A stretch of DNA of 64,000 bases from an uncultured bacterium (GCA_946643435.1 CAMPCD010000002.1:13370-77369), one strand, 5' to 3'. Numbered from the stretch's first letter, positions 11,085-60,167 are shown. Numbers and translations are program-made. The notes: a model not told the origin generated them from the letters alone.

Positions 11085-11189
11085 TTGTAAAAATAGTAAT
11101 AAAAATACTGATTATTGTATGCATATTATTCTTTTATTATGATAAATACTATGATAAAATTATTATGTATGATAGTAAGGAGTGATAGG

Positions 11190-11765
11190 ATGAAGAAATT
11201 AGGTATGGTGATGTTAAACATAGTATTAATAGTATGGTTTATTATTGCTTTATTTACGACAGCATGCTTGTTATCTTATAACGATTTTAGAGTAACAACA
11301 TTTGGTAATTATTCATTAGTTATAGTAGATTCAGATGAATTAGAACCAGATTATCAAGAAGGATCTTTATTACTTGTTAAAAAGAATGGTAATAGTAAGA
11401 TTAATGTAGATGATAAAATATTCTATTACAATACTTCTAAAGATAATGATACAACTATTTATACTGATGTTATTACAAAGAAAGATGATATCAATAAAGC
11501 AGAGTCCACATTTACTCTAAGTGATAATCAAAAGGTTTCATCAGAGTTTGTGTTAGGTACAACAAAGAGTACAACTGTATTACCTTATTTAGGTACTGCG
11601 CTTGGTATCCTTACATCTAAGTGGGGATTTATGTTTATCATTATATTCCCAACATTATTCATGACATTATATGAGTTATTAATGATAATAGAATTATTCA
11701 GATCCGATTCTGATGAAGATGAAGAGGACAACAAAAATGAAAGACGCGATAAAAAGAAAGAGTAA
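11190..11765 (+). CDS. SipW/Sec11-like signal peptidase homologue with catalytic residues replaced (predicted pseudo-enzyme)
   Basis: N-terminal TM. Core aligns with the two downstream paralogues (IVDSDELEPDYQEGSLLLVKK vs VASGSMEPTLSINDLLIVK and VATGSMEPEYPVGDVIVVKK). C-terminal TM plus acidic tail. The SGSM and THR boxes are not conserved (SDEL, IYTDV). AAGGAG RBS before ATG 11190. Confidence 0.6.
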   Translation: MKKLGMVMLNIVLIVWFIIALFTTACLLSYNDFRVTTFGNYSLVIVDSDELEPDYQEGSLLLVKKNGNSKINVDDKIFYYNTSKDNDTTIYTDVITKKDDINKAESTFTLSDNQKVSSEFVLGTTKSTTVLPYLGTALGILTSKWGFMFIIIFPTLFMTLYELLMIIELFRSDSDEDEEDNKNERRDKKKE

Positions 11766-12309
11766 AATCATGTTATTTAGTATTATGTTCTTACTTATTG
11801 TTGTATTAGTTATAGTTGATACATATGCATTATTTGAGACAAATGGTAGTGCAGATGTTGAATACAATGTTGGTAAGTGGGAAATAAAACTTAATAACGT
11901 TAATATTTCACTAGAAAGAGTTATCACGTTAAATGACTTCGTATATACAGGTTCAACACACGTCGAGGATGGCTATTTTGCACCAGGAGTTAATGCAGAA
12001 TACGAACTAGATATTGATACTAGCAACACAGATACATCTGTAGAATATGATTTATTGATTGATGATAGCCATATTGAATTATATCCTAATATTCATTTTA
12101 AAATAATTGATTTAGATACAAATGAAGAATTAGTAGGTAATAATAAACATGGTGTTATAAGTGTAGATTCTACAAATAAGATTAAAAAGATTAAAGTAGT
12201 ATTAGAATGGGAAGATTTAGAAGAGTATGATGAATCTGATTCAACTCTTATCGGCAAAAGTCTAACATTTAACATGCAAGCTAATTTCAAACAATATTTA
12301 GGAGACTAA
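11737..12309 (+). CDS. secreted protein with SipW-class (TasA-type) signal peptide
   Basis: Basic N-terminus, h-region, then VDTYALFETNGS (compare TasA GGGTWAAFND). C-terminal LEWEDLEEYDESD...SLTFNMQANFKQ signature is shared with paralogues. Start is uncertain (11713, 11719 or 11737); it overlaps the upstream gene. Confidence 0.65.
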   Translation: MKDAIKRKSKIMLFSIMFLLIVVLVIVDTYALFETNGSADVEYNVGKWEIKLNNVNISLERVITLNDFVYTGSTHVEDGYFAPGVNAEYELDIDTSNTDTSVEYDLLIDDSHIELYPNIHFKIIDLDTNEELVGNNKHGVISVDSTNKIKKIKVVLEWEDLEEYDESDSTLIGKSLTFNMQANFKQYLGD

Positions 12310-12323
12310 AGGGGCTGATTGTT

Positions 12324-13229
12324 ATGAACCAAATAAGGATAATAACAAAAAAGATAGAAAATGTTTTATGTGTAGTCTTGTTGATAATATTAATATTTGC
12401 AGTATATGCAAAAGTTAAAATAACGTTCAACAAAGATATACATACTAATTTCTTTGGATACAGAGTATTCGAAGTAGCATCTGGTTCAATGGAACCAACA
12501 TTATCTATAAATGATTTATTAATAGTTAAGGTATCAGATGAAGAGTTAAAAAAAGATGATATCATTGCATACATGAGAGATGATTCAATAATTACCCATA
12601 GAATTATCATGGTTGATGAAAATTCGTTGATAGTTAAAGGTGATGCAAACAATACTATAGATTCACCAATTAACAAAGATCAAGTAATTGGTAAAGTTGT
12701 TAAAGTATTACCTCAATTTGGTGTATGGCATAAGATATTCTCAGAACCTAAAATCTTAGTACTAATGTTTATAACATTATTACTATTTGACTTTGCTCTT
12801 TCATATGGTATTAAGAATGAAGAAACTAAAAAAGATGAAAATGTTTCTTCTAAAGATAAAACTAAGAAGACAACTACTAAACAAAAAGAAGTAGTTGAAG
12901 AAAAAGTAGAAGACAAAGTTGAAGATAAAGAAGAAGAGATAGTAATTAAAGAAATAAAAAATGAAGAAAAGAAAAAGAAGGAACAAAAAGAAAAATTACT
13001 AGAATTCACCAGAAAGATTGATCTTTCTCAATTAGATAATATTATTGATGATAAGACTGTTGATGGAGTTAAAGAAGTATATAAACCTATCAATGATAAT
13101 AAAAAGAAAGAAGAAAAAGAAGGGAAGAAAGAGAAATCTAAAGAAGAAGATTTATCTGAGACTAAAGAATATACAATCAGATTAGACTTAAATGAATTAC
13201 AAAAGAATATTCATAAAAAAGTTAAGTAA
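12324..13229 (+). CDS. sipW: signal peptidase I, ER/SipW type, with ~150-aa K/E-rich C-terminal extension
   Basis: All boxes are present: VASGSMEPTL, IITHRII, VKGDANNTIDSP. A second TM (ILVLMFITLLLFDFAL) is followed by a long KE-rich low-complexity tail. Confidence 0.8.
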   Translation: MNQIRIITKKIENVLCVVLLIILIFAVYAKVKITFNKDIHTNFFGYRVFEVASGSMEPTLSINDLLIVKVSDEELKKDDIIAYMRDDSIITHRIIMVDENSLIVKGDANNTIDSPINKDQVIGKVVKVLPQFGVWHKIFSEPKILVLMFITLLLFDFALSYGIKNEETKKDENVSSKDKTKKTTTKQKEVVEEKVEDKVEDKEEEIVIKEIKNEEKKKKEQKEKLLEFTRKIDLSQLDNIIDDKTVDGVKEVYKPINDNKKKEEKEGKKEKSKEEDLSETKEYTIRLDLNELQKNIHKKVK

Positions 13230-13240
13230 GTGAGGTGGGA

Positions 13241-13840
13241 ATGATGGAAGTAATTAAGAATTTTCTAAAAAATATTAACCTTAATGATTTTAAGAATAGA
13301 CTTATTATTTCCGTTGTTTTTATCATTGTTATTGTTACTATATTCTCAATTAGTTTTACTCAAGCTAGATATGAAACAGATACAACTGTAAGATTATCAC
13401 CTGACTTAGCATTCTTTATCGCAGATGTTCAAAGTGAAACAGGACAAATAAGGTTAGATGGTATGGTTCCTAGTGCAACACCATATCTATATACATTTAA
13501 TGTATCTAATTACTACAAACAAAAGAAAGCTAATGTAGATTTAAAGTATAAGATTGAAATAATAACAACAACTAACATGCCTCTTAGATATAAAGCGTAT
13601 CATGGTGATGATATGACTACGAACATAGTAAGCAGTCAATACTATGATACTGATTCGAATGGTGTTTACTATCAACATTTAGTTATTGATAGTGAATACA
13701 TATTACATTATCAAAATAAAGAAACTGATCAATTTACATTATATGTAGAATATCCTCTAGAATTTAAAAATAACTATAAGGAATATGCAGGTATTATTGA
13801 TCTAGTAGATATAAAAGTAAATGCAGAGCAGGTAGTTTAA
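13241..13840 (+). CDS. secreted protein with SipW-class signal peptide
   Basis: h-region then SISFTQARYETDTT. C-terminal LYVEYPLEF...GIIDLVDIKVNAEQ resembles the paralogue signature. Start could be 13241 or 13244, after GAGGTGG. Confidence 0.6.
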   Translation: MMEVIKNFLKNINLNDFKNRLIISVVFIIVIVTIFSISFTQARYETDTTVRLSPDLAFFIADVQSETGQIRLDGMVPSATPYLYTFNVSNYYKQKKANVDLKYKIEIITTTNMPLRYKAYHGDDMTTNIVSSQYYDTDSNGVYYQHLVIDSEYILHYQNKETDQFTLYVEYPLEFKNNYKEYAGIIDLVDIKVNAEQVV

Positions 13841-13841
13841 T

Positions 13842-14768
13842 ATGAAAAAAGTAATAAGTTTATTAAAAAGAATAAAACCTATTTATTACATTGTATTTAT
13901 GCCTCTATTGATATTTGGTACTTATACTTTTGCAAAGTTTGTTACTGAAGAGTTTCATAGTTACTTTACAAATAGTAAGAATTTCTATTTTACTAGTAAT
14001 ATCCTAACTGAAGATAATAATTTGTATCAAATAAACAACTGGATAGGTATAGGACAATTTAATATTTCATACGAATTATACTCAAAGGAAAACAACTATG
14101 TATTTACTGAATATGATGTTACTTACGTAACTAGTGTGTCTTGTTCAGATGACGTGTTATGTGAAGTAGATAAACCAAGTGGAACAATTTATTCTTCATC
14201 TCATGAAGAAGAAATACATATAAATATAGTTCCTCAAAGATTATTTAATGAAGGAGAAAAAATAGAAATTCAAATAAATGCTGAGTCATCGTCGCCTTAT
14301 GTTAAAAAACTAAGTGCTAAATTCGAATATATTGTAGGTAAACAAGGTGTTACCTATGAAATAGAAGATGAACCTAATAGAGCATATTTATTGTTGAAAA
14401 TAACTAACGCCTTAAACTATTGTACAGTGCAAACAGCATTTGATACTTATAGTGTAGGTGATGCTATTGAATATGATAAATATAGATCATTAAGTGATGA
14501 CAATAAAGCTAAATGTGTTAGTCAACATGCTAAGTTAGACTTTAATCCTAACGATGTAATTATTGATAATACTGGTGATATATTAAAGAAATCAACATTC
14601 ACGACAACACCAATAAGTGGTATTGATTTTATTAATAGATTGGAATTTAATATAGGGCCTCTTACAACAGCTTCGGTTAAATTCTATAAGAATAATCCTG
14701 CTAATAATTATACTTTCCCAGTAGTAAACAATAGCAGCATTATTGATGTTGAAATAACAGACCCATAG
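13842..14768 (+). CDS. secreted protein with SipW-class signal peptide
   Basis: h-region then FGTYTFAKFVTEE. 308 aa with 5 Cys. Starts 2 nt after the upstream stop. Confidence 0.6.
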   Translation: MKKVISLLKRIKPIYYIVFMPLLIFGTYTFAKFVTEEFHSYFTNSKNFYFTSNILTEDNNLYQINNWIGIGQFNISYELYSKENNYVFTEYDVTYVTSVSCSDDVLCEVDKPSGTIYSSSHEEEIHINIVPQRLFNEGEKIEIQINAESSSPYVKKLSAKFEYIVGKQGVTYEIEDEPNRAYLLLKITNALNYCTVQTAFDTYSVGDAIEYDKYRSLSDDNKAKCVSQHAKLDFNPNDVIIDNTGDILKKSTFTTTPISGIDFINRLEFNIGPLTTASVKFYKNNPANNYTFPVVNNSSIIDVEITDP

Positions 14769-14783
14769 GAAGAATGTGAAATA

Positions 14784-15758
14784 ATGGAATACAATGTTAT
14801 AGGAATATATACTAATTTTATTCAATCTAAATTGTTAGAATTATTTAAAATACTATTAAAGTATAAATATAATAGATCTGTATGTTTAAACTTTATTGAT
14901 AGATATATAGATGTAAGATATTACAATGAAACTAACTATCCTAAAGAAAAAGATTTTATTCAAAGATTAAATAGAGAATTAGTAGATGTATACAATCAAA
15001 ATGTTGATGATGATAATAAAGATGTATTAAAGAATATTGTAGCTTTATTTGGCTATATAACATATTTAGACGATTTATATAACATTGTAGAAGATGTAGA
15101 AGTTATTCACACATTAGTTACAGATGAAAACTTAAAGTTTGATAAAACTGATGAATTAGAAGATAAGATTAAAGAATGGTATTTAAGTTTCAATAAAGGA
15201 AAGAATAATTTCCAAAATGCCATTAGTTCAAAAGAGTTCTGTATAACTGAAAAAAGTGTATATAGAAAGTTGCATGAAGTTACTTTAAACCATAATGTTA
15301 AAGTATCTAATCTTTATAGTGAGTATGCAATTAATAAAGCATTTAATTCAGGAGTAGTTAATGAAGATAAAGAGTTTATTACGTATATATTAACTTCTCA
15401 ATTAGTATTAAATAGTGCAATTAATTTGGATTTTTCTTATAAGTATGTTGTACCTTTCTCTGAGTCATATTATTCAAAGGAGAAAAAGGCTGGTAGATTA
15501 TTAAATATTTTAAATAATCCATTAGCTAAGAAGTTAATTAATATTAAAATATATTATAGTAATTATTTAGAGAATAAAGAATTCATCAATGGATTAATAA
15601 AACAAGGTTATTCTTTTGCCTTAGTCCTTGATAATGAATTACAAGATTTAAATGAACTAGTTTTATTTACTTATATTTATGTGTTCGAAGATAGTAATAA
15701 TTTTGATATAATTGTAAGTAATAAAGATAAACTAGGAATTAAAGTAATAAAGGTTTAG
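14784..15758 (+). CDS. hypothetical cytoplasmic protein (324 aa)
   Basis: Long ORF with no TM or signal sequence. Tightly linked to flanking genes (gaps of 15 and 11 nt). No motif recognised. Confidence 0.6.
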   Translation: MEYNVIGIYTNFIQSKLLELFKILLKYKYNRSVCLNFIDRYIDVRYYNETNYPKEKDFIQRLNRELVDVYNQNVDDDNKDVLKNIVALFGYITYLDDLYNIVEDVEVIHTLVTDENLKFDKTDELEDKIKEWYLSFNKGKNNFQNAISSKEFCITEKSVYRKLHEVTLNHNVKVSNLYSEYAINKAFNSGVVNEDKEFITYILTSQLVLNSAINLDFSYKYVVPFSESYYSKEKKAGRLLNILNNPLAKKLINIKIYYSNYLENKEFINGLIKQGYSFALVLDNELQDLNELVLFTYIYVFEDSNNFDIIVSNKDKLGIKVIKV

Positions 15759-15769
15759 GAGGATAGAAT

Positions 15770-17311
15770 ATGGATACATTTTTTAGATTCTTATATGAAT
15801 TTCTCCATCAATTCTTTGATGGGTTAGGATATGTATGCCAAGGAATCGGTAAAGGTTTTGCAACAATCTTTAATATTCCTGGATATATGAATGTATTAAA
15901 TGATTATAAGGCTGATTTTAATATACCTGAATGGATATTTACTGGCCTTACAGTTATTTTATTACTTATTGTATTAGGATTAATAATTGGTTTATTCTAT
16001 TTCCTAATAAGAACAATATTTAAATTTAGAAAAACTGCTATTGATCAAGAAGCACTTCTAGAAGAAGTTGCAAACTTAAATGATGAAGTAGCAAAACTAT
16101 ATAAAGAAAAAGAAGATATACTTGCTATGCAAGTATCTAAATTGGGTATTAGACCTGATGAAGAAGTACCTGAAGGAGTTGAACCAAATGCTGCTTCAGA
16201 AGATGGTGAAGCTAATGGTGAACAAACTTCTGAAATCAGATTCCCTAAACTTAACGATGTTGATATCAAATTTAAAGATTATAAAGTTGCTAACTATAAT
16301 AACACATTTGAGTTACCAGAGTTAGTTGATATGTTTAGAAACTTTGCTGCCAGTCAATTAAAACTATATTATAAGACTGAAATGATAAGATTATTTATCT
16401 CAGCATTAGCATCAACTAAGCTTGTTATCTTACAAGGTATTTCTGGTACAGGTAAAACTTCCTTAGCATATGCTTGGGGAAAATTCTTAAAACATGACTC
16501 ATGTATTGCATCAGTTCAACCATCATGGCGTGATAGAACTGAGTTATTCGGATACTTCAACGAGTTTACTAAACGTTTTAATGAAACAGATGTATTAAAA
16601 CAATTATATGAAGCAAGTTATACTGATGATGTTTATACAGTAATCTTAGACGAGATGAACATCTCACGTGTTGAGTATTATTTTGCTGAAATGTTATCTA
16701 TTCTAGAAATGCCTAACAAAGATGAATGGATAGTTGAAATAGTTCCAAGTGCTTGGTCATCAGACCCAGTTAAGTTAAAAGATGGTAAATTAAAAATACC
16801 ACCAAATGTATGGTACATTGGTACAATCAATAACGATGACTCAACATTCATGGTTACTGACAAGGTATACGACCGTGCTATGCCAATTGATATCAATGAT
16901 AAAGGTGAGGTATTTGTACCAAATGAAGTAGAAGCTCAAGATATCAATTATTCTTATCTTGATTCCAAATTCCAAGAAGCTATTGCTGAACATCAAATAA
17001 GTGAAGAAACACTTAAGAAAATTGATGAAATGGACGATTATGTTATTCAACATTTCCGTATTGCCTTCGGTAACCGTATTGTTGCACACATGAGAAAATT
17101 CGTAGCAGTATTCGTTGGATGCGGTGGAGATGAAATAGATGGAGTAGATTACTTCATAGCTAGAAAGATTTTAAGAAAATTCGAACAATTAAATGTTGCT
17201 TATATTAGAGATGAAATTGATGGTTTTGTTGATTTCTTAAATAAGAAATTTGGGGAAAACAAAATGCATGAATGTATCGAATATCTATTAAGACTTAAGA
17301 AGATGGTATAG
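15770..17311 (+). CDS. membrane-tethered McrB-family AAA+ GTPase
   Basis: One TM (WIFTGLTVILLLIVLGLIIGLFYFLI), a coiled coil, an acidic linker, then LVILQGISGTGKTS (Walker A), TVILDEMNISRVEYYFAEMLSILE (Walker B region) and WYIGTINNDDST (NxxD). These are collinear with E. coli McrB as I recall it: FILQGPPGVGKTF / IIDEINRANLSKVFGEVMMLME / IIGLMNTADRS. AGGAGG RBS. Confidence 0.75.
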   Translation: MDTFFRFLYEFLHQFFDGLGYVCQGIGKGFATIFNIPGYMNVLNDYKADFNIPEWIFTGLTVILLLIVLGLIIGLFYFLIRTIFKFRKTAIDQEALLEEVANLNDEVAKLYKEKEDILAMQVSKLGIRPDEEVPEGVEPNAASEDGEANGEQTSEIRFPKLNDVDIKFKDYKVANYNNTFELPELVDMFRNFAASQLKLYYKTEMIRLFISALASTKLVILQGISGTGKTSLAYAWGKFLKHDSCIASVQPSWRDRTELFGYFNEFTKRFNETDVLKQLYEASYTDDVYTVILDEMNISRVEYYFAEMLSILEMPNKDEWIVEIVPSAWSSDPVKLKDGKLKIPPNVWYIGTINNDDSTFMVTDKVYDRAMPIDINDKGEVFVPNEVEAQDINYSYLDSKFQEAIAEHQISEETLKKIDEMDDYVIQHFRIAFGNRIVAHMRKFVAVFVGCGGDEIDGVDYFIARKILRKFEQLNVAYIRDEIDGFVDFLNKKFGENKMHECIEYLLRLKKMV

Positions 17312-17314
17312 TAT

Positions 17315-18421
17315 ATGAGTGATATTAAGTTATTAGATATATATGATAAAACTCCCCAAAATGTAAAAGATTCGTTTTCTAATAATACTAGATCAGAATT
17401 ATCTGTTTCTACTAATTTCAATAAGGTAGAAGCTTCATATGAATGGTTAGAGTTAATGGAAAATACTGTTAGATATATTGATAACGTATTAAGAAATCCT
17501 AATCGTTTCATCATCAATGAAGAAGAGATAGTTAAAGTAGAATTAGCAAGAAGAATTACAGTAGATAGTATTAGACATCTATCTAAACATACAAACTATA
17601 TTCAAAAAATTGAAGATAATGGAGATGTTAAGCCTTCTAAGATCTTAAATATCAATAAAGATGAGAGTTATAACACATATGAAAATAGATTAGTGTTTAC
17701 TCTTATCAATAACATGCGTGATTATTTAGAAATAAAGAAGAAGGGGTTGGCTAAAGCATCATCCGTAAAAGATACTAAAAAAGCAACTTATAGTGCCAAG
17801 ACTAGAGTAGGTAATGAAAATGTATTGGTTGAAATGAGTTATACATCAGCTTTATCTGATAAAGATGAGTTACAAGGAGAATCACCATTAGAGGAAAGAA
17901 TTGCTAAACTTGATGGTGATATCCAAATGTTAACTGGAAGTAATTTATATCAAACATTACATAAAGCTCACGTAGCTAAAGTTATACCTCCTATTAAAAA
18001 GACAAACGTAATATTAAAGAATACAAACTTCCAATATATTATGAAATTATGGGATTTCTTACAAAGTAATCCTCCAGATGACACTAAAGTTATTAAACAA
18101 AAAAGAGAATTCCAAGATACTGGAATACTTAAAGAATATATGGATTCAACATTCTTACTTAATTATTTAGCAATGAATACATTAAGTGATACAAAATCTA
18201 CTATTGAAAGTAAGGAATTAGTTAGTGAAGTAACTGATAAATTAATACAAAAGATAGTTGAATTAAATCCTAACATGCCTATTACAGAATTAAAAGAAAA
18301 GATAGGTGATAAGTTAGTGATGACAAGATATAAATATGAAGCTTCATTAAGTGAAGTAAATGGTGTATTCTCAAGAAGAATAAAAGCGTATTTAGAGAAA
18401 GTTGAAAACATGGAAATGTAG
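17315..18421 (+). CDS. McrC-N-terminal-like (DUF2357-like) partner protein without a recognisable nuclease motif
   Basis: Starts 4 nt after the McrB-like gene. NPNRFIINEEEIVKVELARRI...ESYNTYENRLVFTLINNM resembles the N-terminal region of McrC-type partners. I saw no PD-(D/E)xK pattern in the helical C-terminal half. Confidence 0.4.
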   Translation: MSDIKLLDIYDKTPQNVKDSFSNNTRSELSVSTNFNKVEASYEWLELMENTVRYIDNVLRNPNRFIINEEEIVKVELARRITVDSIRHLSKHTNYIQKIEDNGDVKPSKILNINKDESYNTYENRLVFTLINNMRDYLEIKKKGLAKASSVKDTKKATYSAKTRVGNENVLVEMSYTSALSDKDELQGESPLEERIAKLDGDIQMLTGSNLYQTLHKAHVAKVIPPIKKTNVILKNTNFQYIMKLWDFLQSNPPDDTKVIKQKREFQDTGILKEYMDSTFLLNYLAMNTLSDTKSTIESKELVSEVTDKLIQKIVELNPNMPITELKEKIGDKLVMTRYKYEASLSEVNGVFSRRIKAYLEKVENMEM

Positions 18422-18429
18422 GTAATAAT

Positions 18430-18975
18430 ATGAAAACAATAATCAATGTAATTAGATCAGTTATAACTTTTGTTTTGATAGTAGTACTAATTGGAGTTGT
18501 AATCCAAAGAGTCACTAATTACCGCCTAGCTATTGGTGATATGTATATTTTCCAAGTAGCTACTGGATCAATGGAACCAGAATATCCTGTAGGCGATGTG
18601 ATTGTTGTTAAAAAGGCAGATCCTAGTACAGTTAATGTAGGAGACGATGTTACTTATAAGACAGGTAAAACTTCAAAAGGTGATGTATTTATAACACACA
18701 GAGTAGTTGAAAAGAGAGAAGAAAATGGTAAATATTATTTTACTACTCAAGGTTTAGTTAACTTAGTTGCTGACCCTGAATTCTCAGAAGATGCTCTTGT
18801 TGGAAAAGTTACATATCATACTGTAGTATTAAGTTTTATTGGTCGTTTAATGAATAATATGATTTTCTATTATTGTGCATTTGTATTTATCGCCTTAAGT
18901 TTTTCATATGATATTATTACTAATTATCTAATTAAAAGGGATGATAAAGATGAAGAAGAACAGGAAGAAGAATAA
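18430..18975 (+). CDS. sipW: signal peptidase I, ER/SipW type (second active-looking copy)
   Basis: VATGSMEPEYPVGDVIVVKK and FITHRVV boxes are present. The third box is diverged (TQGLVNLVADPE). C-terminal TM plus acidic tail DDKDEEEQEEE. Confidence 0.75.
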   Translation: MKTIINVIRSVITFVLIVVLIGVVIQRVTNYRLAIGDMYIFQVATGSMEPEYPVGDVIVVKKADPSTVNVGDDVTYKTGKTSKGDVFITHRVVEKREENGKYYFTTQGLVNLVADPEFSEDALVGKVTYHTVVLSFIGRLMNNMIFYYCAFVFIALSFSYDIITNYLIKRDDKDEEEQEEE

Positions 18976-19582
18976 ACATCTCATTAGAACCTTACGTGTT
19001 CTTATCTTAACCGTCTTTATCATGGCGAATACTCTTGCATGGTTTATCTATGTAACAAGAGTAGATAATAGTGTTAATGTACGTGTTAAAGCATGGAATG
19101 TTACCTTCCAAAGTGGAGATACAGTAATATCTAATAATGTAGATGTAGATATTGATAGTTTATATCCTGGTATGCCAGACTATTCATATCAAATAACTGC
19201 ATATAATAAGTCAGAAGTTACTGCTCAATTAACTTATCAAATACTTGAGGCTAGATTATTAGATACTGAATATAAATCTATAGAATATAAAGAAGAATTA
19301 GGAGAAGAAATTCTTCCAACTGATTTAACTAGTAAACAAATAGAGAATATGTTAAATAATGAATTACCTTTTGTAATTATCATCGGTGTAACTGATGAAC
19401 AAGTAGAAGAACAAAACGGGCAATCAATATTTAGTATATCTGCTAGATGGCCATACGAAGGTAAATCTGATGAAGCTGACACTACTTGGGGCATAAATGC
19501 TTCCAATTATAAAGACGCTCATCCTGACAAATCAAGTATTACATTAAAGATTAAAATTACTATGACACAATCAGAGACATAA
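18950..19582 (+). CDS. secreted protein with SipW-class signal peptide
   Basis: Basic N-terminus, h-region, then MANTLAWFIYVTRVDNSVNVRVKAWNVTF. Overlaps the sipW end. AAAAGGG spacing favours ATG 18950 over 18941. Confidence 0.65.
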   Translation: MKKNRKKNKHLIRTLRVLILTVFIMANTLAWFIYVTRVDNSVNVRVKAWNVTFQSGDTVISNNVDVDIDSLYPGMPDYSYQITAYNKSEVTAQLTYQILEARLLDTEYKSIEYKEELGEEILPTDLTSKQIENMLNNELPFVIIIGVTDEQVEEQNGQSIFSISARWPYEGKSDEADTTWGINASNYKDAHPDKSSITLKIKITMTQSET

Positions 19583-19610
19583 AAAAAGAGTTCACTTGAA
19601 CCCTTTTTAA
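19581..19610. terminator. bidirectional terminator between convergent genes
   Basis: A7 run, imperfect hairpin agagttc/gaaccct, then T5. Sits between the + gene ending at 19582 and the - gene ending at 19607. Confidence 0.45.
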
Positions 19611-20197
19611 TTTGCTTGTTGAATAAAGTGTAGATCAATCTTAACACTTGTTGTTCCGTTAGCGGAAGCTTCAGTGTCTTCTTGATTATTCATTGTTTCA
19701 CCAGTACCGTCTATCCATTCAACATAGAATCTATAAACATCTATAGTACTTTCATCACTTAAGTTATGAACAACACTTACAGTATTTGTTTCTCCTATAT
19801 CTGTAACTTCTCCACCATTTAAAGTATATCCAGTAAATACCATATCAGTAATACTATCTTCACCATATGATAGTGTTATATCTTGCTTATAAGAAACACC
19901 AACTCTTGAATGATCTACAATAACATCAAAGTATCCTTTACTTGTTGGAGCAATAACTCCTTCCTTAATATTAGGGTTAGCATCTATTACTGGTATGATA
20001 GTACTTGAGAAATCACTTTCGTTTAATATATCTTGGTCATTAACTTTAAATGTCCATTCAGCAATGGTGAAGTTACCATTCGCAGAGGCACTAGATACAT
20101 ACTTAGCGTATGAATCTTGTATAGAGTTAACTAACAATAATAAAGACGTAAATGCTAATAAGATTTTAACTTTTTTAGATCTAAGTATATTATCCAT
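19607..20197 (-). CDS. secreted protein with SipW-class signal peptide (only minus-strand member of the locus)
   Basis: h-region then IQDSYAKYVSSASANGNFTIAEWTFKVND. C-terminal FYVEWIDGTGET...SVKIDLHFIQQ signature. AAGGAGG RBS. Confidence 0.7.
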   Translation of the reverse strand: MDNILRSKKVKILLAFTSLLLLVNSIQDSYAKYVSSASANGNFTIAEWTFKVNDQDILNESDFSSTIIPVIDANPNIKEGVIAPTSKGYFDVIVDHSRVGVSYKQDITLSYGEDSITDMVFTGYTLNGGEVTDIGETNTVSVVHNLSDESTIDVYRFYVEWIDGTGETMNNQEDTEASANGTTSVKIDLHFIQQAN

Positions 20198-20424
20198 ATA
20201 TGCCTCCTTATCTAATTTTATTTTATCAAAAAATAATAGTATATCCTTAATATAATATCAACAAAATGTATATTGGACACGATGTTTACACGCAAAACAA
20301 CTAGATTTAAAATATGATGTACAAATAAAAGTAAAATTTTTAATAAGTGTTGAATATCAATAACAATTATGATAAATTATAGATATATAATATAAGGGAT
20401 ATTATATAATCAGTGGTGAATAAG

Positions 20425-21147
20425 ATGGCAAAAGAAGTAATGATTAGCGCTAAAAAGATTAAGCGTAGAAAAATTGCATCAAGAACTGCTAAGCTTGCTC
20501 TGTTAGGATTGTTAATATTTTTAATGCTTCTATATATAATACTAACTATTATATATACTGAAGGTAAGTTTACTATATCCCTTGATTCAAATGATTTGAT
20601 GAAAAGTGGATTAGCTATTTATGAAAGTTTGAATAATAGCCAAGGTAAACGTGAATTATCAACCGAAACAATACCATTTATGGATAATATTTCCTACAAA
20701 TGGTTGCCTGAAAACATTGATTCAGATGAGTTGGCGGGTTCTCATAATGGTGATAATTATATAGCGTATACATTCTTTGCAGAAAATCAAGGAAATGAAG
20801 TACTAAATTATTGGTACGAATTAATCTTGGATGATGTAATAAAGAACGTTGATGAAGCTATAAGAATTAGAATTTATCGAAATGGTGAGTATAAAACATA
20901 CGCCAAGAGAAATCCTTTAACTGGTGAACCAGAGAAAGGTACTGAACCATTTACAAATATTGATGGTGCAGAAAAAACAATAATATTAAATCATGTTGAA
21001 GATTTTCAACCGGGACAAAGAGATCGAATAACAATTGTAGTATGGCTTGAAGGAGATGATCCAGACTGTCACGACCCACTAATAGGTGGCGAAATCAAGA
21101 TGCACATGGTTATAACAGAAAACCACATCGGAGAGATAAAGGAGTGA
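20425..21147 (+). CDS. N-terminally membrane-anchored protein related to the downstream putative fibre subunit
   Basis: Basic N-terminus plus TM (LALLGLLIFLMLLYIILTIIY). The C-terminus IVVWLEGDDPDCHDPLIGGEIKMHMVITE parallels RIYMWIEGQDIDCENYATGSDITFNLQFSTE of the next gene. Start is 20413 (GTG) or 20425 (ATG). Confidence 0.6.
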   Translation: MAKEVMISAKKIKRRKIASRTAKLALLGLLIFLMLLYIILTIIYTEGKFTISLDSNDLMKSGLAIYESLNNSQGKRELSTETIPFMDNISYKWLPENIDSDELAGSHNGDNYIAYTFFAENQGNEVLNYWYELILDDVIKNVDEAIRIRIYRNGEYKTYAKRNPLTGEPEKGTEPFTNIDGAEKTIILNHVEDFQPGQRDRITIVVWLEGDDPDCHDPLIGGEIKMHMVITENHIGEIKE

Positions 21148-21151
21148 TATT

Positions 21152-22135
21152 ATGTCTAAGACTAGCAAGAAAAGACAAAAAACAAGCAGAAGCCTAATAC
21201 TATTATTACTAATAAGTATAATTATGTTAGGTACATCAACATATGCATGGTTTACAGCAAACAAGGTTGTAACAATCAATTCAATTGATGTTAAAGTAGA
21301 AGCAAGTAATGGTTTACAAATTTCTACTGATGCAAATAAGTGGAAATCTATTATTACTAATGTAGATATCGCATCAGGTTATACTGATCATAAGAATCAA
21401 TTACCTTCTTATGTAACAGCAGTATCAACAGATGGTACAGTTGATTCTACAAAATCACAATTAAAGATGTATAAAGGTACTGTAGCTACTGACCAAGCAA
21501 CAGGTAACTATACATTAACAACTTCATTAGAAAATGAAGCTGCTGGATCAACAGGTAACTTTGTTGCATTTGATGTATTCTTAAGAGTTGATAGTGCAAA
21601 GACAATCTATTTAACTTCTCAATCAAATGTATATGCTAAAGAAGGTACTGAAGATAAAGGATTAAAGAACTCAGCACGTGTTGGATTTGTTAAATTAGGA
21701 AATGCTGTTTCAACTGCATCTACTGCTTCATTAATAGCATTAAATAATCCTGCTGCTAAAGCAATTATTTGGGAACCAAATATTGATGGACATACAGCAA
21801 TTGTTACAGACCAAGTTGCTAGTGAATATGGTATTACTTTAGGTGTTGGAGAAAGAACTGCTTACCGTGGCATTAAGAATGTAATTCCTACAGCTGTAGA
21901 CTTAAAGAATACAGTAAATGGTACTGATACAACTAATACTTCATCAGTTACTCCAGACATTGCTACAACTGTAGCTAACCCTGACTATACTGAAGCTTTC
22001 GATCTTGAAGCTGGTGTTACAAAAATGAGAATTTATATGTGGATTGAAGGACAAGATATCGATTGTGAAAACTACGCAACAGGTTCTGATATTACATTCA
22101 ACTTACAATTCTCAACTGAATCATCAGGAGCTTAA
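21152..22135 (+). CDS. putative major secreted subunit with SipW-class signal peptide
   Basis: MLGTSTYAWFTANKVVTINSIDVKV N-terminus (compare the GTLAYFT-type signal peptides of TasA/BsaA-class proteins). The mature part is A/T/S/G/N/V-rich. GGAG RBS. Followed by the strongest terminator in the locus. Confidence 0.7.
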   Translation: MSKTSKKRQKTSRSLILLLLISIIMLGTSTYAWFTANKVVTINSIDVKVEASNGLQISTDANKWKSIITNVDIASGYTDHKNQLPSYVTAVSTDGTVDSTKSQLKMYKGTVATDQATGNYTLTTSLENEAAGSTGNFVAFDVFLRVDSAKTIYLTSQSNVYAKEGTEDKGLKNSARVGFVKLGNAVSTASTASLIALNNPAAKAIIWEPNIDGHTAIVTDQVASEYGITLGVGERTAYRGIKNVIPTAVDLKNTVNGTDTTNTSSVTPDIATTVANPDYTEAFDLEAGVTKMRIYMWIEGQDIDCENYATGSDITFNLQFSTESSGA

Positions 22136-22149
22136 TAATAAATAATAAA

Positions 22150-22175
22150 AATGAGGTTTACACCTCATTTTTTTA
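22150..22175 (+). terminator. intrinsic terminator after the putative major subunit
   Basis: Hairpin aatgaggt/acctcatt with loop ttac, followed by T7. Confidence 0.75.
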
Positions 22176-22222: not shown

Positions 22223-25200
22223 ATGCATTTTAGTTTTGGCCGAATTAAAAATGTTAAGTTACTAATTCCACTATTACTGTTCGTAATGGTTGTTTTTGTG
22301 TACCATATTTTAGGTACTTTTAGTACAGTAGTAGAGGATAATGCTTATAACGGTATTCCTGCAACATCATTTGCTGGTGGTAATGGTACTGAAATAAATC
22401 CTTATATTATTTCAACTCCTAATGAAATGGATTATTTTAGACTATTAATTACAGGTGAAGAAGCTGAATACTATAGTGATAAATGTTACATGATTACTAG
22501 TAGTTTAAACTTTGGTGATTATGATATAACTATTGATAATGAAGTTCCTTTTAAAGGTAGTCTTGATGGAGATGGACATCAAATATATAATTTGGAGATA
22601 AATAATAGTTTCTTTAAGAATCTTGATGGTGCTACTATTAAGAATCTTGAATTGACTGATATTCAATATTTAACTACAAGTAATGAACATGGTGTATTCG
22701 TTGATAACTCTGTTAATTCTACTTATAACTTAATTAACTTAGATTTTGAGTTTAATAACAATCATGATTATTTAGCTACATTCATTTATAATGATACTGG
22801 ATCAATAATTAATAATGTTGTTATTAATGTTAATAATGTTAAGAATGATACATATTATGGATTGATATATAAAGCTAATCAAACAACTATTAATTCAGCT
22901 TTAACTAATAATGCTTATAATGATATAGCTGAAGATAATACTATAGTTAGAAATATATATCATTATACATTTACTGGTGGAAGAATATTCTCAACTGATA
23001 TAGATAAATTTGAATCTGAAGGATTTAAGATTGAATATTCTTATAGTAAATATGTTATGAAAGATATAATACCTAGTCTAGGTAATGAAAGAATAGGTGC
23101 TTATCAAGAACATGATACTGGTACTTCTGGTAATACTATTTATATCAATAATTTAACTAAAGATTTAGATTATTATACTAGTTTAAATTATGCATCTTCT
23201 ACAAATAGACAGTTACCAACAATGGATAATAAGAATATTTATAATGAAAATAATTTAGTTAAAGTAATGCTTTCTTATTCAGGTGTAGAAACTAATGGTG
23301 GAACTACTTTAACTGGTACTATTTCTTCAACAGAAAATTATAATAAGATTGTTTATTATGATTACATTCCTGTTGAAAATAATAAAATTAAAATAACATT
23401 AATTGATAATCCTTTTGTTAATAGGCCAAATAACAAAGGATTCAATAATTGGATAAGTGATACAAATGGAGTTATATTATCTTATGACACAGTAAGATAT
23501 GAAAGATTCGCAGAACTAAACGTAACTAAAAATGCTGAAAACAAATATGATCCAATTGAAATAAACTTACATGCAAGTTGGGTAGAAGCAGTTAACTATG
23601 GATTATCTGGTAACAACTGGACTAATGCATTTAACTCATTTGATACTAAAGGTTTAAAACAATTTGAAACTACAAGAGAAGAATGTACAAGACCTAGTGT
23701 TCAAGGATATTATTTAGAACAAACTGCTCCAAGATATACTTATTATACTGGTTATTATCGTTCTTCAGGTAGTGGTAATAATGCTACTTATACTTATGCA
23801 ACTGATAGATATTGTAATACTAGAGGTGGTTGTACATATTATGAAGAGATAGAATATGATGAACTTTATGATCCTGACGAAACATATTATACATTTAGCG
23901 GTAATAGAAGATATGTTGCAACACCTGAAGAGATAGGTGTTACGTGTGAAAATGTTCATACAGTAAGTGATACATTCAGTCCTGCCGGATATTATACTGA
24001 AAAGACATTTGGTAGAGGTGCATCTTATACAGGATATTATAATTCATCAGGACAACCTGTTAGTGGAACATGTAATTCTACAAGTTGTACATATTATGAA
24101 TTTATTCAATCTTTTGATGCATATGGTAATAGACCTGTAATAGATTTCACTAAGAATTATTATTATCTTGTAACAAGAGACACTAATATTGCTTATTTAA
24201 CTGGTGATATTACAAATTATTGGTCAAGTTCAAATGCAAGTAATAAACCATTTACTTTAACAGGATTACACAATGGTTATCAAACATCATATGATTGGAC
24301 TGTTACTGGTAACCATATTAAATTATATAATGATACAGCAATCGAACAATTAACAATTTATAATACTAAGAGTTTAAGCACAGATGATGTTGTTGTCTCA
24401 TCTGGTGGTTGGTGGGCAACATATTATGCTGTAATAGATGTTAATTATCATAACTTAAAAGTTGGTAGAGGAGTTAAACAATATAATTCCAATTATGCTA
24501 CATTCGATTACATATTTGGTGGTGAAGAAGGAACTGGTAGTTCTTCGTCAGATACACAATATAATGTAATTGTTGAATCTGGGCATTATAGTTCTATTGC
24601 ATTGACATTACTTGTTGGTGGTAGTGGAACAGCTTATGTAGCTAATAAGACAACTCTTGGATGTGATGTTGATAAAGTATTAGATACTAACAATAATAAT
24701 TTAGAAGTTTATTATCAGGTAGCATCATCATTCTCAGGTACTATAAATTCATCTGAAGAATGTGCTACAAATTTAACAGTTAAGAGTGGTAAATTTGGTA
24801 CATCACAATCTGACATGTATACAGGTATCTATGTTGGAGGATTAACATCTGGTACACATAATGCTGCAAGACGAATAAATGTTGAAGGTGGATGGATTAA
24901 TAACTTAATCGGTGGACCTTTAACAGCTAGTAATAGAAGATTATATAATGATACATATATTTATATGACAGGTGGTACTGTTGATATCATTATCGGTGGT
25001 GCTGGTAGATCTCCTACTTATGGTAACCGTATAATTTCCGTTACTGGTGGTAAAGTTAATTATAGTGTTCTAGGTGGATCTAATGGTTCTGGTAGTGATG
25101 CATCAGGTACTGATGGAACAATCAATGGTTCATCATACATATATATTGGTGGACATGCTACAATTGGTGATACTACTTTAGTTAATAACAATTCTACACT

Positions 25201-28200
25201 TTGGGGTGTTGCTTCTGGTTCAGTCTTTGGTAATGGTAATGGTAAGAGTGGTTACTCGGGAATTGGATCTAATGAAAATTCTTATGTAATTATTGATGGA
25301 AGTGCAGATATTAAAGGTTCAGTCTTTGGTGGTGGTAACTTTGGTGCTACTGGTGTTAACAGTGCAAGTGATACTAACGAAACAAAGATTAATATTCTTG
25401 GCGGAACAATATCAGGAGACGTCTATGGTGGAGGAAACCAAAACGGTGCAGGTTCTACAGATAAGAGAGTAGATATAACTATTACTCAAACTGGTGGAAC
25501 TGTTAAAGGAAGCGTTTATGGTGGCTCTAATATATCAGGAACAATCTATGGTAATACTTCAGTAAATATTACTAAAGGCTCAATAACTAAGAATGTATAT
25601 GGTGGAGGAAAAGGTAATAGTACATACGTAAGAAATAATTCTAGCGTAGTAATAGGAAATACAACTACACCTAATGTTCCAACAATATCAGGAAGTGTTT
25701 ATGGTGGTTCTGGATATGGTACAGTAAATGGTGTTAATACTACAACAGCTACATCAAATGCAGCAACTACTGTAACAGTTAATAATGGTAAGATTACTGG
25801 TTCAGTATTTGGTGGAGGAGAAGGTAGTACAACTTATACTCCATATGTACTTGGTGATATTACAGTTACAATTAATAATGGTAGTATTGGAAATGTGTTT
25901 GGTGGAAATGACCAAGCAGGATCACATACTAAAACTAATAGAGTTTACCTAAAAGGTGGAACTTTAAATAATGCTTATGGTGGTGGTAACAAATCAAGTG
26001 TTACAACTACAAATGTATACTTACAAGGATCTACATTAAGTAATTTATTTGGTGGATCTAATCAACAAGGTGATGTTACTACATCAAATGTAACTATTTC
26101 TTCTGGTAAAGTTAATAATATTTATGGAGGAAATAATGAAGGTGGTACAACAACTACAACACATATTACTGTAGAAGGTACTGCTGATATAACTGGTTCA
26201 GTATTTGGTGGTGGTAACCAAGCTGCTACTGTAACATCAAATGTTATATTAAATTCGGCCGCGCATAAAATAACAGATGTATTCGGTGGTGGTAATGCTG
26301 CTAATGTTACAACAACTAATATCACAAATAAAATGAGTGTTGATAACATGTTTGGTGGAAGTAACTCAGCAGGTACTGTTCAAAACAGTTATATTATCAA
26401 CAATGGTGGAACACATATTAATATTTATGGTGGTAATAACAGAGGTGGTAATACAGTTGATAGTTCAATAACATTTAACAGTGGTACTGCAGCTGCTATA
26501 TTTGGTGGAGGAAACCTAGCAAGTACAGGTACTACACTTATTAACTTAGAAGGTGGAACAGTAACAACTGTTTATGGTGGAGGTAACTCAGCTGGTGCTA
26601 CTTCTTCTACAATAAATAATAATGCAGGAACTATTACAACAATCTATGGTGGTTCAAATGTTACTGGAGATGTAGGAACAACTAATATCAACAATGATAA
26701 TAGTGTAGGTACAATCTTCGGTGGTGGAAATTCGGCTAATGTAGGAACTACAAATATAGATGTTACATCAGGTAATATTACAACAATCTATGGAGGTGGA
26801 AACTTAGCTAAAGTAACTGGAAATACAACATTATCAATTACTAATGCTAATGTTTCATCTAATATCTATGGAGGTGGAAACTTTGGTGTTGTAAACGGTT
26901 CTTCAAATCTTACTGTTATAGATACTACTGTATTAGGTTCTATCTATGGTGGTGGTAATGGTGGACCTGCAACATTACAAGGAAGTACTGAAGTAAATAT
27001 TGGTGGTAATACTGTTGTTGGTACTGAAACATCAGTTGCTCCTCATTTTGGTTCAGTATTTGCTGGTGGTAACTCAGCAGAAACAGGACTTGAAGCAAAT
27101 AATAATTCAGTAGCTAAATTAAATATTGCTGGTGGAACAATTTACGGTAATATTTATGGTGGTGCTAATACATCAGTTATCTATGGAAATACAATAGTTA
27201 ATGTTGGTAAATCTGTAGATAAGGATATCAAAAAAGGCGATATATTTATTAAAGGTCATGTATTCGGTGGTGGTGAAGCAAATGCTGCCGGTGACGAAAC
27301 ATATGACTGGTACTTTATTTCTGTAACACAAGGTGTTGTAATCACAATAGATGCTGATACATATGATAATTTTACTATCAATGGATCATTCTATGGTGGT
27401 GGTAATGCATCTTCTGCTTCAGGAGATTCATACTTATATATTAAGAATTATGGTGCTGGAGAATCACCTAAACGTAATGTATCTATTCAACGTGTTACTT
27501 ATGTTGATATAGATAATTCATCATTATTGTTATTAGGTGCTATCGATAGAGCCAACGATTATGATAAAGAATTATTCTCAATAAGCCGTGTTGTAAATAT
27601 GACTATTAGAAATAACTCTGAGTTATATTTAGCAACAGGTGCTAACTTACTTGAAAACTTTAACTCATTAGATAGTAGTGGTAATCCTGCAGTTGTTACA
27701 ATTACAGAAGATTCTATTACAAAATCTGTTGATAATAGAGTTTATATGTTTGAAGGTAAGAACCTAAATATAGCAAGAGACCAACAAGTAACTGACTACG
27801 GTAAAGTTACAGGTATGTCATTCTTTGGTATGTTTAATTACAATTATGATGGTACAGTTCATACTGGTAACTATGGACATCAATATAATGATGGAGATGA
27901 GTTATCATGGCAAGGTACATTTACAAGAGGTTCTTATGTATTAGGATTACATGAAACTAATCATGATATAACAGTAAATGGATTCTATAGTAACTTCATG
28001 GATGAAGAAACAATGATAAATGATGTTAAATACATTGAACCAACTCCACCTGACTCAAGATACTACATGTGGTTTATTGGTGAAAATGTAATTGAATATA
28101 ACGTTAATTTAACAGCATCTAAATATTCAACATTAGGTTCTGTCGAAGTTTCATTCCTTGAATTCTATGATCCAAATACTTCATTTGAAATTCTTAACTT

Positions 28201-59995: not shown

Positions 59996-60080
59996 TGGTG
60001 CGGGTAAGAGGACTTGAACCTCCACGGAGTAATCCACTAGATCCTAAGTCTAGCGCGTCTGCCAATTTCGCCATACCCGC
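59996..60080 (-). tRNA. tRNA-Leu (anticodon UAG), CCA encoded
   Basis: The reverse complement folds as a cloverleaf: acceptor GCGGGTA/TACCCGC, anticodon stem CTAGA/TCTAG with loop CTTAGGA, a long variable arm, T arm GGAGG-TTCAAGT-CCTCT, and 3' ACCA. Confidence 0.9.
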
Positions 60081-60090
60081 ATAAAAAAAA

Positions 60091-60167
60091 TGGTGGATCT
60101 TATAGGACTCGAACCTATGACCGCCCGGTTATGAGCCGGATGCTCTAACCAACTGAGCTAAAGATCC
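60091..60167 (-). tRNA. tRNA with CAU anticodon (elongator Met or lysidine-dependent Ile2), CCA encoded
   Basis: Acceptor GGATCTT/AAGATCC with a paired 1:72 position (so not an initiator), D arm GCTC-AGTTGGTTA-GAGC, anticodon loop CTCATAA, T arm ATAGG-TTCGAGT-CCTAT. Confidence 0.88.

Follow-up and report, generated by a model that had tools for sequence, protein, structure and literature searches.

The locus

The window analysed here, that is, the whole stretch of 64,000 nucleotides of DNA from an uncultured bacterium (GCA_946643435.1 CAMPCD010000002.1:13370-77369), has a G+C content of about 26% and genes almost all on the plus strand. It carries a cluster of 14 genes (g01-g14) that encodes signal peptidases of the SipW type, several small secreted proteins and a giant surface protein. 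Within this cluster, a membrane-tethered McrB-like GTPase (g07), an McrC-like partner without a nuclease (g08) and, ahead of both, a protein with a predicted EAL-like fold (g06) form a trio with gaps of 15, 11, 3 and 8 nucleotides before, within and after it. An earlier note, made from the sequence alone, had placed three open reading frames (ORFs) on the plus strand at 14784-15758 (324 aa), 15770-17311 (513 aa) and 17315-18421 (368 aa), and coordinates, strand and lengths are all correct. It had read the pair as a derivative of the McrBC restriction machinery that was either exapted for the surface system or formed a membrane-associated defence module nested in the operon.

The GTPase

The 513-residue product of g07 (15770-17311, plus strand) possesses a single strong hydrophobic segment (residues 62-80, hydropathy score 3.21), which together with the flanking charges defines a transmembrane (TM) helix at residues 58-83 (15941-16018); this is the one TM helix that had been described before. 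Four arginine or lysine residues follow the helix, so that the C-terminal part should be cytoplasmic. Behind the helix lie a stalk (residues 84-125, 16019-16144; conservation 0.60), in which conserved hydrophobic residues recur at heptad-like distances, and a variable acidic linker (residues 126-155, 16145-16234; 33% D+E, 23% P+G; conservation 0.20). Linker and coiled-coil string are present as the earlier note had them and the helical segment is conserved, but a crude heptad-versus-shuffle test of the stalk was not significant (p about 0.1-0.35), and the stalk is thus best described as helical-looking and conserved, with a coiled coil being plausible. No DNA-binding family matches g07, the N-terminus of which consists of the TM helix, the stalk and the acidic linker. 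The TM helix and stalk (residues 57-159, 15770-16240) match ATP synthase subunit b weakly and without significance (E=0.11), and this TM plus long-helix peripheral stalk offers an architectural analogy only.

As judged by its motifs, the nucleoside triphosphatase (NTPase) site of g07 is complete. The Walker A motif GISGTGKT (residues 223-230, 16436-16459) has G223, G226, G228, K229 and T230 invariant in A1, while in the Walker B motif LDEM (16646-16657) D294 is invariant and E295 conserved at 90% or more in A1, LDE(M/V/A/I/L)N being the dominant form of this motif in the family. The GTPase signature follows as N354-N-D356-D357 (16829-16840), that is, NxD and then D or E. It is this signature for which the earlier note erred, as it had g07 retaining the McrB-specific NxxD motif: N354 and D356 are invariant in 131/131 representatives, among which 94 have D at position 357, 32 have E and 5 another residue, and since this position is D or E in 126/131 the family signature is NxD(D/E), not NxxD. 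The NNDD of g07 itself fits both forms by coincidence only.

Searches with phmmer align g07 to the E. coli McrB structures 6ut6, 7vsr and 6hz4 collinearly over residues 198-371 (E=3e-4), which reproduces the three McrB alignments of the earlier note; the sole slip in them was the E. coli string 'FILQG...', which actually reads 'IILQGPPGVGKTF'. With the single g07 sequence, too, nothing but McrB was significant in the PDB. In a profile search of the PDB with 34 family members, McrB is the sole significant relative (E=2.4e-5), and neither MoxR nor RavA is among the PDB matches of this profile, so that the AAA+ core groups with McrB. The best NCBIfam match of g07 is also McrB, with 22.6 bits far under the equivalog cutoff of 637, and AAA_5 matches 30 of the 34 family members.

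An exhaustive search for the family yields 764 representative clusters at E<=1e-30, which fall into three architectures, with one to two TM helices, with four TM helices, and soluble with a long N-terminus. Close homologues number in the thousands (74-81% identity for the best 120 clusters) and derive from uncultured gut genomes labelled 'Bacilli bacterium', 'Tenericutes' or 'Clostridium sp. CAG'. In JGI annotation, homologues are labelled as components of viral defence. A defence-candidate model of PADLOC, PDC-M26A, matches the GTPase core of g07 (E=3e-36); as evidence for defence this match was rejected, since it is the shared GTPase core alone that matches, in all architecture classes.

The partner

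The 368-residue product of g08 (17315-18421, plus strand), which starts 3 nucleotides past the end of g07, carries an N-terminal DUF2357 domain (PF09823; 38.6 bits versus a gathering score of 23.3, E=9e-10, residues 22-155). The NPNRFI and YENR strings from which the earlier note had suspected an McrC-type partner are present, and the DUF2357 assignment passes the gathering score. Homologues share 60-69% identity at 367-379 aa.

The absence of a PD-(D/E)xK nuclease, likewise proposed before, is borne out by 82 aligned partners of different species, in which all acidic positions conserved at 90% or more fall within residues 49-123, inside DUF2357. A second conserved block at residues 225-246 (PI.TN..KN.NF...LW) contains no conserved acidic residue, conservation ends at residue ~250, a conserved acidic/lysine triad was not found outside DUF2357, and Pfam gave no nuclease match. 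An AlphaFold2 model built from 53 close homologues reached a predicted local distance difference test (pLDDT) score of 56 and Foldseek gave nothing meaningful with it; because of this low score the model was kept out of the nuclease-fold argument and the conservation analysis used instead. Profile searches of g08 against PDB sequences gave no match, and an hhalign comparison of its profile with McrC of E. coli gave none either; the latter comparison is uninformative because the E. coli protein has diverged too far from partners of the DUF2357 type. In Clostridia, partners are 677-821 aa long, with the extra part being a charged helix of 300-450 residues rich in K, E, R and A and not a nuclease.

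Conservation and synteny

One genome per species was scanned for relatives, and of at least 586 species genomes with a relative the best 80 loci were used, which span 76-52% identity and include RF39-like Bacilli as well as Clostridia (Acutalibacteraceae, Oscillospiraceae, Ruminococcus). All 14 genes of the window cluster were matched against related loci (n=85). The partner follows the ATPase in 83/85 loci, a SipW-like gene is present in 84/85 and a TasA-like gene in 82/85; the loci departing from this pattern are short contigs. Across more than 80 species the pair is thus inseparable from SipW peptidases and small secreted proteins resembling SipW substrates, and the cluster is constant while its flanking genes vary between genomes. 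Co-occurrence with sipW and TasA-like genes, which the earlier note had put forward as a check on the trio, holds for the ATPase-partner pair, but not for the 324-aa gene, which is separate, fused or absent. The minimal module, found in Clostridia, comprises a g12-like gene, a g13-like gene, an active SipW, the ATPase, the long partner and the giant protein.

Among 33 species the ATPase has a median identity of 69%, the highest of the locus, versus 30-47% for all other genes, a ranking that fits a core motor rather than a gene for defence. The scanned neighbour genes of the related loci contained no family of nucleases, HEPN proteins, methylases or mobile elements, nor were defence-island neighbours seen in these loci.

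A sister class of ATPases with four TM helices (about 607 aa, sampled from metagenomes; loci L088-L167) also adjoins a SipW-like peptidase and secreted proteins with a 'GVGFAAW' motif. Its operon (e.g. L095:5503-16884) encodes two 'GVGFAAW' secreted proteins, the SipW-like peptidase, an 810-aa protein, a lipoprotein with Listeria-Bacteroides repeats, a partner-like protein of 415 aa with a YEN motif and a C-terminal CxxC...CxxC zinc ribbon, and a transporter composed of an ABC ATPase and an ABC-2 permease. As this class is SipW-linked too, the membrane-anchored ATPases as a whole appear to be tied to SipW-type surface systems.

An EAL-like protein linked to SipW

The cytoplasmic 324-aa protein encoded by g06 (14784-15758, plus strand) has no match to any family (Pfam including EAL, NCBIfam) nor among PDB sequences. 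Its AlphaFold2 model (pLDDT 90, predicted template modelling score 0.87) retrieves EAL domains as 30 of the 32 top PDB matches in Foldseek, including EAL structures of FimX, with a best E-value of 2e-4 and a probability of 1.00 for the top 27, at template modelling scores of only 0.3-0.5. On the model, the fold of g06 is EAL-like, and recognisable EAL catalytic motifs were not found in the protein. A more diverse g06 profile aligns collinearly with EAL at only 4% probability, with the invariant residues G275 and D283 on the strand 'GF.VSIDDFG'.

Only 198 homologues of g06 are detectable. In 42 loci the gene immediately precedes that of the ATPase, and with diverged forms included it fills this slot in 64 loci. 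In 10 other species the slot is occupied by a SipW-g06 fusion of 646-756 aa whose ORF ends just before the ATPase (L053, L055, L057, L059, L060, L066, L067, L069, L074, L076; e.g. L066:7749-10004), and which joins a SipW-like peptidase (first TM helix, catalytic domain, second TM helix) through a charged K/E-rich linker to a full-length C-terminal g06 domain. From the topology of SipW, the g06 domain of the fusion should be cytoplasmic, and the fusion itself, as a Rosetta-stone link, argues for physical cooperation between g06 and the peptidase beside the GTPase.

Twelve Clostridia-type modules without g06 are headed, on the same strand, by a stand-alone gene with a Pfam EAL domain (PF00563, 7e-47; L062:5390-6145 and L061, L063, L065, L070, L071, L073, L077, L078, L079, L083, L084). 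In this EAL protein the catalytic lysine is replaced by glycine and several further catalytic positions are substituted, by which it is probably of the receptor rather than the enzymatic type. Stand-alone EAL and g06 never occur in the same locus, and g06 is itself lineage-specific in being a separate gene, SipW-fused or absent.

The remaining genes of the cluster

Two SipW-type signal peptidases of the window are predicted to be active, g03 (12324-13229; 77.7 bits to TIGR02228), which is of the SipW/archaeal type, and g09 (18430-18975; 80.4 bits), both on the plus strand, above the cutoff of 51.85 and with the catalytic serine and histidine kept. Hence the earlier assignment of sipW neighbours stands. 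The TasA-like label given to the secreted neighbours is only weakly supported. Behind its second TM helix g03 has a K/E-rich tail of 145 aa (27% D+E, 27% K+R), which should be cytoplasmic. Charged helices rich in K and E (R/A) are found on different proteins in different lineages, namely this g03 tail (12792-13229), the linker of the SipW-g06 fusion and the C-terminus of the Clostridia partner (e.g. L061:11569-13743), and a charged helical segment shifting between proteins points to a mobile element that serves the complex as spacer or ruler.

A third SipW-like paralogue, g01 (11115-11765, plus strand; NCBIfam SipW E=8.8e-14, under cutoff), is catalytically dead by its alignment with g03 and g09, as its catalytic serine is replaced by glutamate (SGSMEP to SDELEP) and its histidine by aspartate (ITHR to YTDV). 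Such a dead paralogue stands beside active ones in 47/81 loci and, by its sequence, is a conserved pseudo-peptidase. A Derlin/p97-like model, with the dead signal peptidase as receptor of the AAA+ protein, was rejected as a general model, as the SipW gene adjoining the ATPase is catalytically intact in 25/25 cases and the compact Clostridia-type modules lack a dead paralogue.

The small secreted paralogues are encoded, as judged by synteny with relatives, by g02 (11713-12309, with an N-terminal signal-anchor and a candidate TasA-like paralogue), g04 (13235-13840), g05 (13842-14768, 308 aa) and g10 (18941-19582) on the plus strand and g11 (19607-20197) on the minus strand, with no family match for g02, g04 and g05. 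The membrane-anchored g12 (20413-21147, plus strand, 244 aa; TM helix at residues 29-47), whose synteny reaches the Clostridia-type loci, is always paired with g13 (21152-22135, plus strand). The latter is the most widely conserved secreted gene of the locus and a candidate for the major fibre subunit; it has a signal peptide of the SipW-dependent type (TIGR04088, 19.4 versus a cutoff of 19), and its family profile finds no match among PDB sequences. Peptidase_M73 matches 3/140 secreted paralogues (best E=3.7e-4). Up to eight signal-anchored proteins are encoded per locus. The cluster ends with g14 (22223-29977, plus strand), syntenic in relatives, which encodes a giant surface protein of 2584 aa that may serve as adhesin or cargo. 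The protein carries a signal-anchor at its N-terminus and numerous repeats rich in G, N, S and T. Neither Pfam nor NCBIfam has a match for it, and its counterpart in a Clostridia-type locus (L062:13876-21075) has matches to Peptidase_M26_N and GLUG.

A palindromic terminator-like hairpin (19583-19608) between the convergent g10 and g11 forms the end of the g01-g10 unit, of which the trio is part. A second palindromic hairpin (22147-22172) lies after g13 and before g14, a position consistent with attenuation behind the gene of an abundant (major) subunit. The called ORFs of g01 and g02 overlap by 53 nucleotides (11713-11765) and those of g09 and g10 by 35 nucleotides (18941-18975), which are probably over-long starts from a mechanical ORF caller and not real overlaps; the true start of g01 is probably an internal methionine codon near 11190. 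Just downstream of the cluster lies a 510-aa ORF without a family (30150-31682), a pyruvate kinase gene is found at 31734-33149 and two adjacent tRNA genes (Rfam) are found on the minus strand at 59999-60167; the setting is an ordinary chromosomal housekeeping context.

Relation to described systems

The arrangement is not without precedent, since the clade has been named CoCoPALM, in a few sentences and with details deferred to a forthcoming paper (Bell et al., eLife 2024, PMC11090510). It was described as an NxD-branch McrB GTPase that carries a fused FtsB-like domain, made up of a TM helix and a coiled coil, and that is associated with the signal peptidase family, with coiled coils on the McrB and McrC homologues 'usually' but not obligatorily present; the NxD truncation of the signature motif is predicted to modulate the hydrolysis rate (Bell et al., PMC11090510). 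No follow-up paper on CoCoPALM was found. Matched by the published description only, g07 and g08 very probably belong to this clade. Common to both are the NxD McrB GTPase with an N-terminal TM helix and helical region, the DUF2357-type McrC homologue without a nuclease, the tight association with signal peptidase genes and the occurrence in Bacillota. On the other hand, the McrC homologue of the window and of RF39-like Bacilli is short (368 aa) and without a long coiled coil, whereas the Clostridia relatives have the long helix, and the window locus adds the EAL-like g06, three SipW paralogues (one of them dead) and at least six small secreted paralogues. Five points go further than the literature consulted: g06 with its EAL-like fold, its fusions to SipW, the EAL genes of the Clostridia loci, the conservation ranking and the SipW-linked class with four TM helices.

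With E. coli McrBC (6ut6, 6hz4, 7vsr) the window pair shares a collinear AAA+ GTPase core with Walker A, Walker B and sensor asparagine, and a directly downstream partner gene with an McrC-type N-terminal domain. It differs in being without the N-terminal DNA-binding domain and the PD-(D/E)xK nuclease, in having NxD instead of NxxD, in its membrane tether and in residing in a surface-structure operon, not a defence island. CoCoNuTs (PADLOC PDC-M26) share with it a GTPase core of the NxD type (109-155 bits to PDC-M26A) as well as N-terminal extensions that are helical or coiled, but are soluble and always accompanied by HEPN or other nucleases, whereas the window pair is membrane-anchored and has no nuclease.

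On the side of the surface structures, the tapA-sipW-tasA operon of B. subtilis and sipW-bsaABC of C. perfringens combine a SipW-type peptidase with several small secreted paralogues with SipW-type signal peptides, as does the window locus, whose secreted proteins have a faint sequence link to TasA through Peptidase_M73. Unlike the window locus, neither operon encodes an NTPase. Secretion of BsaA oligomers is lower in several type IV pilus mutants of C. perfringens, evidence that its authors consider inconclusive (PMC11580942) and that is a hint of a possible energy-dependent step.

FimX is a degenerate cyclic di-GMP receptor that controls the assembly of type IV pili. The FimX/PilZ/PilB system resembles the window locus in that a degenerate EAL protein is linked to the assembly NTPase of a surface filament, FimX being among the Foldseek matches of g06; it differs in that there is no sequence homology, no PilZ in the window system and another NTPase family, and cyclic di-GMP binding by g06 is only putative.

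Interpretation

The reading favoured here is that g07 and g08 constitute an McrBC-derived module that has lost DNA targeting and nuclease and would be a dedicated, conserved part of a SipW-dependent surface-fibre biogenesis cluster; with a GTP-driven mechanism included, its probability is put at roughly 0.6. Taken by itself, a dedicated non-defence role in fibre biogenesis is likely from comparative genomics, and the action of the GTPase as a motor rather than a switch is a tentative proposal with somewhat less than even chances. Among the two alternatives of the earlier note, exaptation for the surface system is strongly favoured because of the synteny with SipW and TasA-like genes, the conservation of the ATPase, the lack of a nuclease or other effector and the SipW-linked class with four TM helices. 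Of the two outcomes named in the earlier note as refuting, a standard McrC nuclease domain in a pair independent of SipW/TasA genes and clustering of the core with MoxR/RavA, neither was observed. The proposal is upheld only in part, as the NxxD claim was wrong, the trio is not fixed and the clade had already been named.

By analogy with the E. coli McrBC structures and Bell et al., g07 would form a hexameric ring under the membrane, held by six TM and helical stalks, and, on the model of the same structures, the DUF2357 domain of g08 would insert in this ring and stimulate hydrolysis of GTP. Turnover of GTP would drive or license a step of fibre biogenesis at the membrane beside SipW, which might consist in passing on or releasing g13 and its paralogues, the signal-anchored subunits, so that they can be cleaved and polymerised, or in extruding the fibre and the giant g14 through the wall. 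The EAL-like g06 would probably couple the peptidase to the GTPase and may, we infer, receive a cyclic-di-GMP-like signal.

Several points weigh against this reading. At every step the functional part is backed by comparative genomics only, and with the poor model of g08 the ring insertion is pure analogy. As for g06, hhalign comparisons with the active EAL enzyme PdeH and with the EAL family of the loci were not significant, and a motif search found no GGDEF gene in the window. Pfam DivIC/FtsB matches the N-terminus of 1/34 members of the g07 family (E=0.012), by which FtsB homology is not confirmed, and the TasA-like label of the secreted neighbours draws on context, signal peptide and the faint Peptidase_M73 signal. 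To our knowledge, the TasA fibres of B. subtilis need no NTPase. Polymerisation would moreover be extracellular and the GTPase is intracellular, with no channel besides Sec evident, and how energy would be transferred across the membrane via one TM helix per subunit is unexplained, which is the main weakness.

It is this weakness that speaks for a regulatory switch, in which GTP binding and hydrolysis, in a cycle modulated by g08 and g06 or EAL, would gate SipW activity or the timing of assembly without mechanical work, since force transmission is hard to picture with one TM helix per subunit. The EAL-type proteins tied to the locus, the g06-SipW fusion and the hydrolysis rate that the NxD truncation is predicted to modulate (Bell et al., PMC11090510) point in the same direction. 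Yet no gene of the locus is better conserved than that of the ATPase, as is typical of motors, and the relatives with four TM helices, which would bring 24 of them to a hexamer, and the long charged helices look structural. McrB-type AAA+ rings are translocases or remodellers and not simple switches, and a mere switch is considered unlikely. A different kind of mechanical work, the extraction of cleaved SipW signal peptides or stalled precursors from the membrane in the manner of AAA+ extractases, would suit an AAA+ ring tethered beside signal peptidases of which the adjoining one is active in 25/25 cases, as well as the many signal-anchored proteins of the locus, and could give the dead SipW paralogues a role as substrate receptors. 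The compact Clostridia-type modules do without these paralogues, there is no known precedent for polypeptide threading by McrB-type rings and, as far as we know, B. subtilis SipW works without such a factor, which makes such a quality control function highly improbable.

Defence in the form of a nuclease-less, membrane-associated anti-phage module was the second alternative of the earlier note; such a module might, for instance, sense phage attack on the fibre and trigger abortive infection. The PADLOC match, the JGI label and the CoCoNuT-like nature of the closest soluble relatives would agree with it, but the PADLOC match is limited to the GTPase core shared by every architecture class, and the locus has no effector domain and no mobile-element or defence-island neighbours. 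The synteny with SipW and fibre genes persists in all 80 species-level loci, down to 52% identity, the difference between ATPase and other genes in identity indicates very strong purifying selection, and the link of the four-TM class to SipW is equally unexpected for defence, so that this alternative is less probable still. An ordinary type IV restriction system of the McrBC kind, inserted by chance, would account for McrB as the best structural-database relative and for DUF2357 in the partner. It is incompatible in practice with the TM helix and stalk in place of the DNA-binding domain, the missing PD-(D/E)xK, the NxD motif, the NCBIfam McrB score far below its cutoff and the fixed synteny, and can be discounted almost entirely.

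Beyond the favoured reading of g07 and g08 as part of fibre biogenesis, one may speculate, as a conjecture with the odds against it, that membrane-anchored NxD GTPases (with one to two or four TM helices), DUF2357 partners, SipW and EAL-derived adaptors together make up a previously unrecognised NTP-driven machine for fibre assembly or export in Gram-positives. A second messenger would gate this machine, which, being found widely among uncultured Bacilli and Clostridia of the gut, would stand as a new class next to sortase pili, type IV pili and the passive assembly of the TasA type.

Implications

If the favoured reading is true, a restriction-enzyme motor has been turned into a part of cell-surface assembly, which would be a clear case of re-use from defence to cell biology. 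In that case there would also be an NTP-dependent variant of the SipW/TasA-type fibres, whose assembly is thought to be energy-free, in abundant uncultured gut Firmicutes (at least 586 species genomes). The SipW-g06 fusions and the EAL association provide testable hypotheses on interaction and regulation for a clade that has been named but not studied. For the small-genome organisms that carry the cluster, the fibre and the giant adhesin-like protein are likely determinants of attachment to host or particles.

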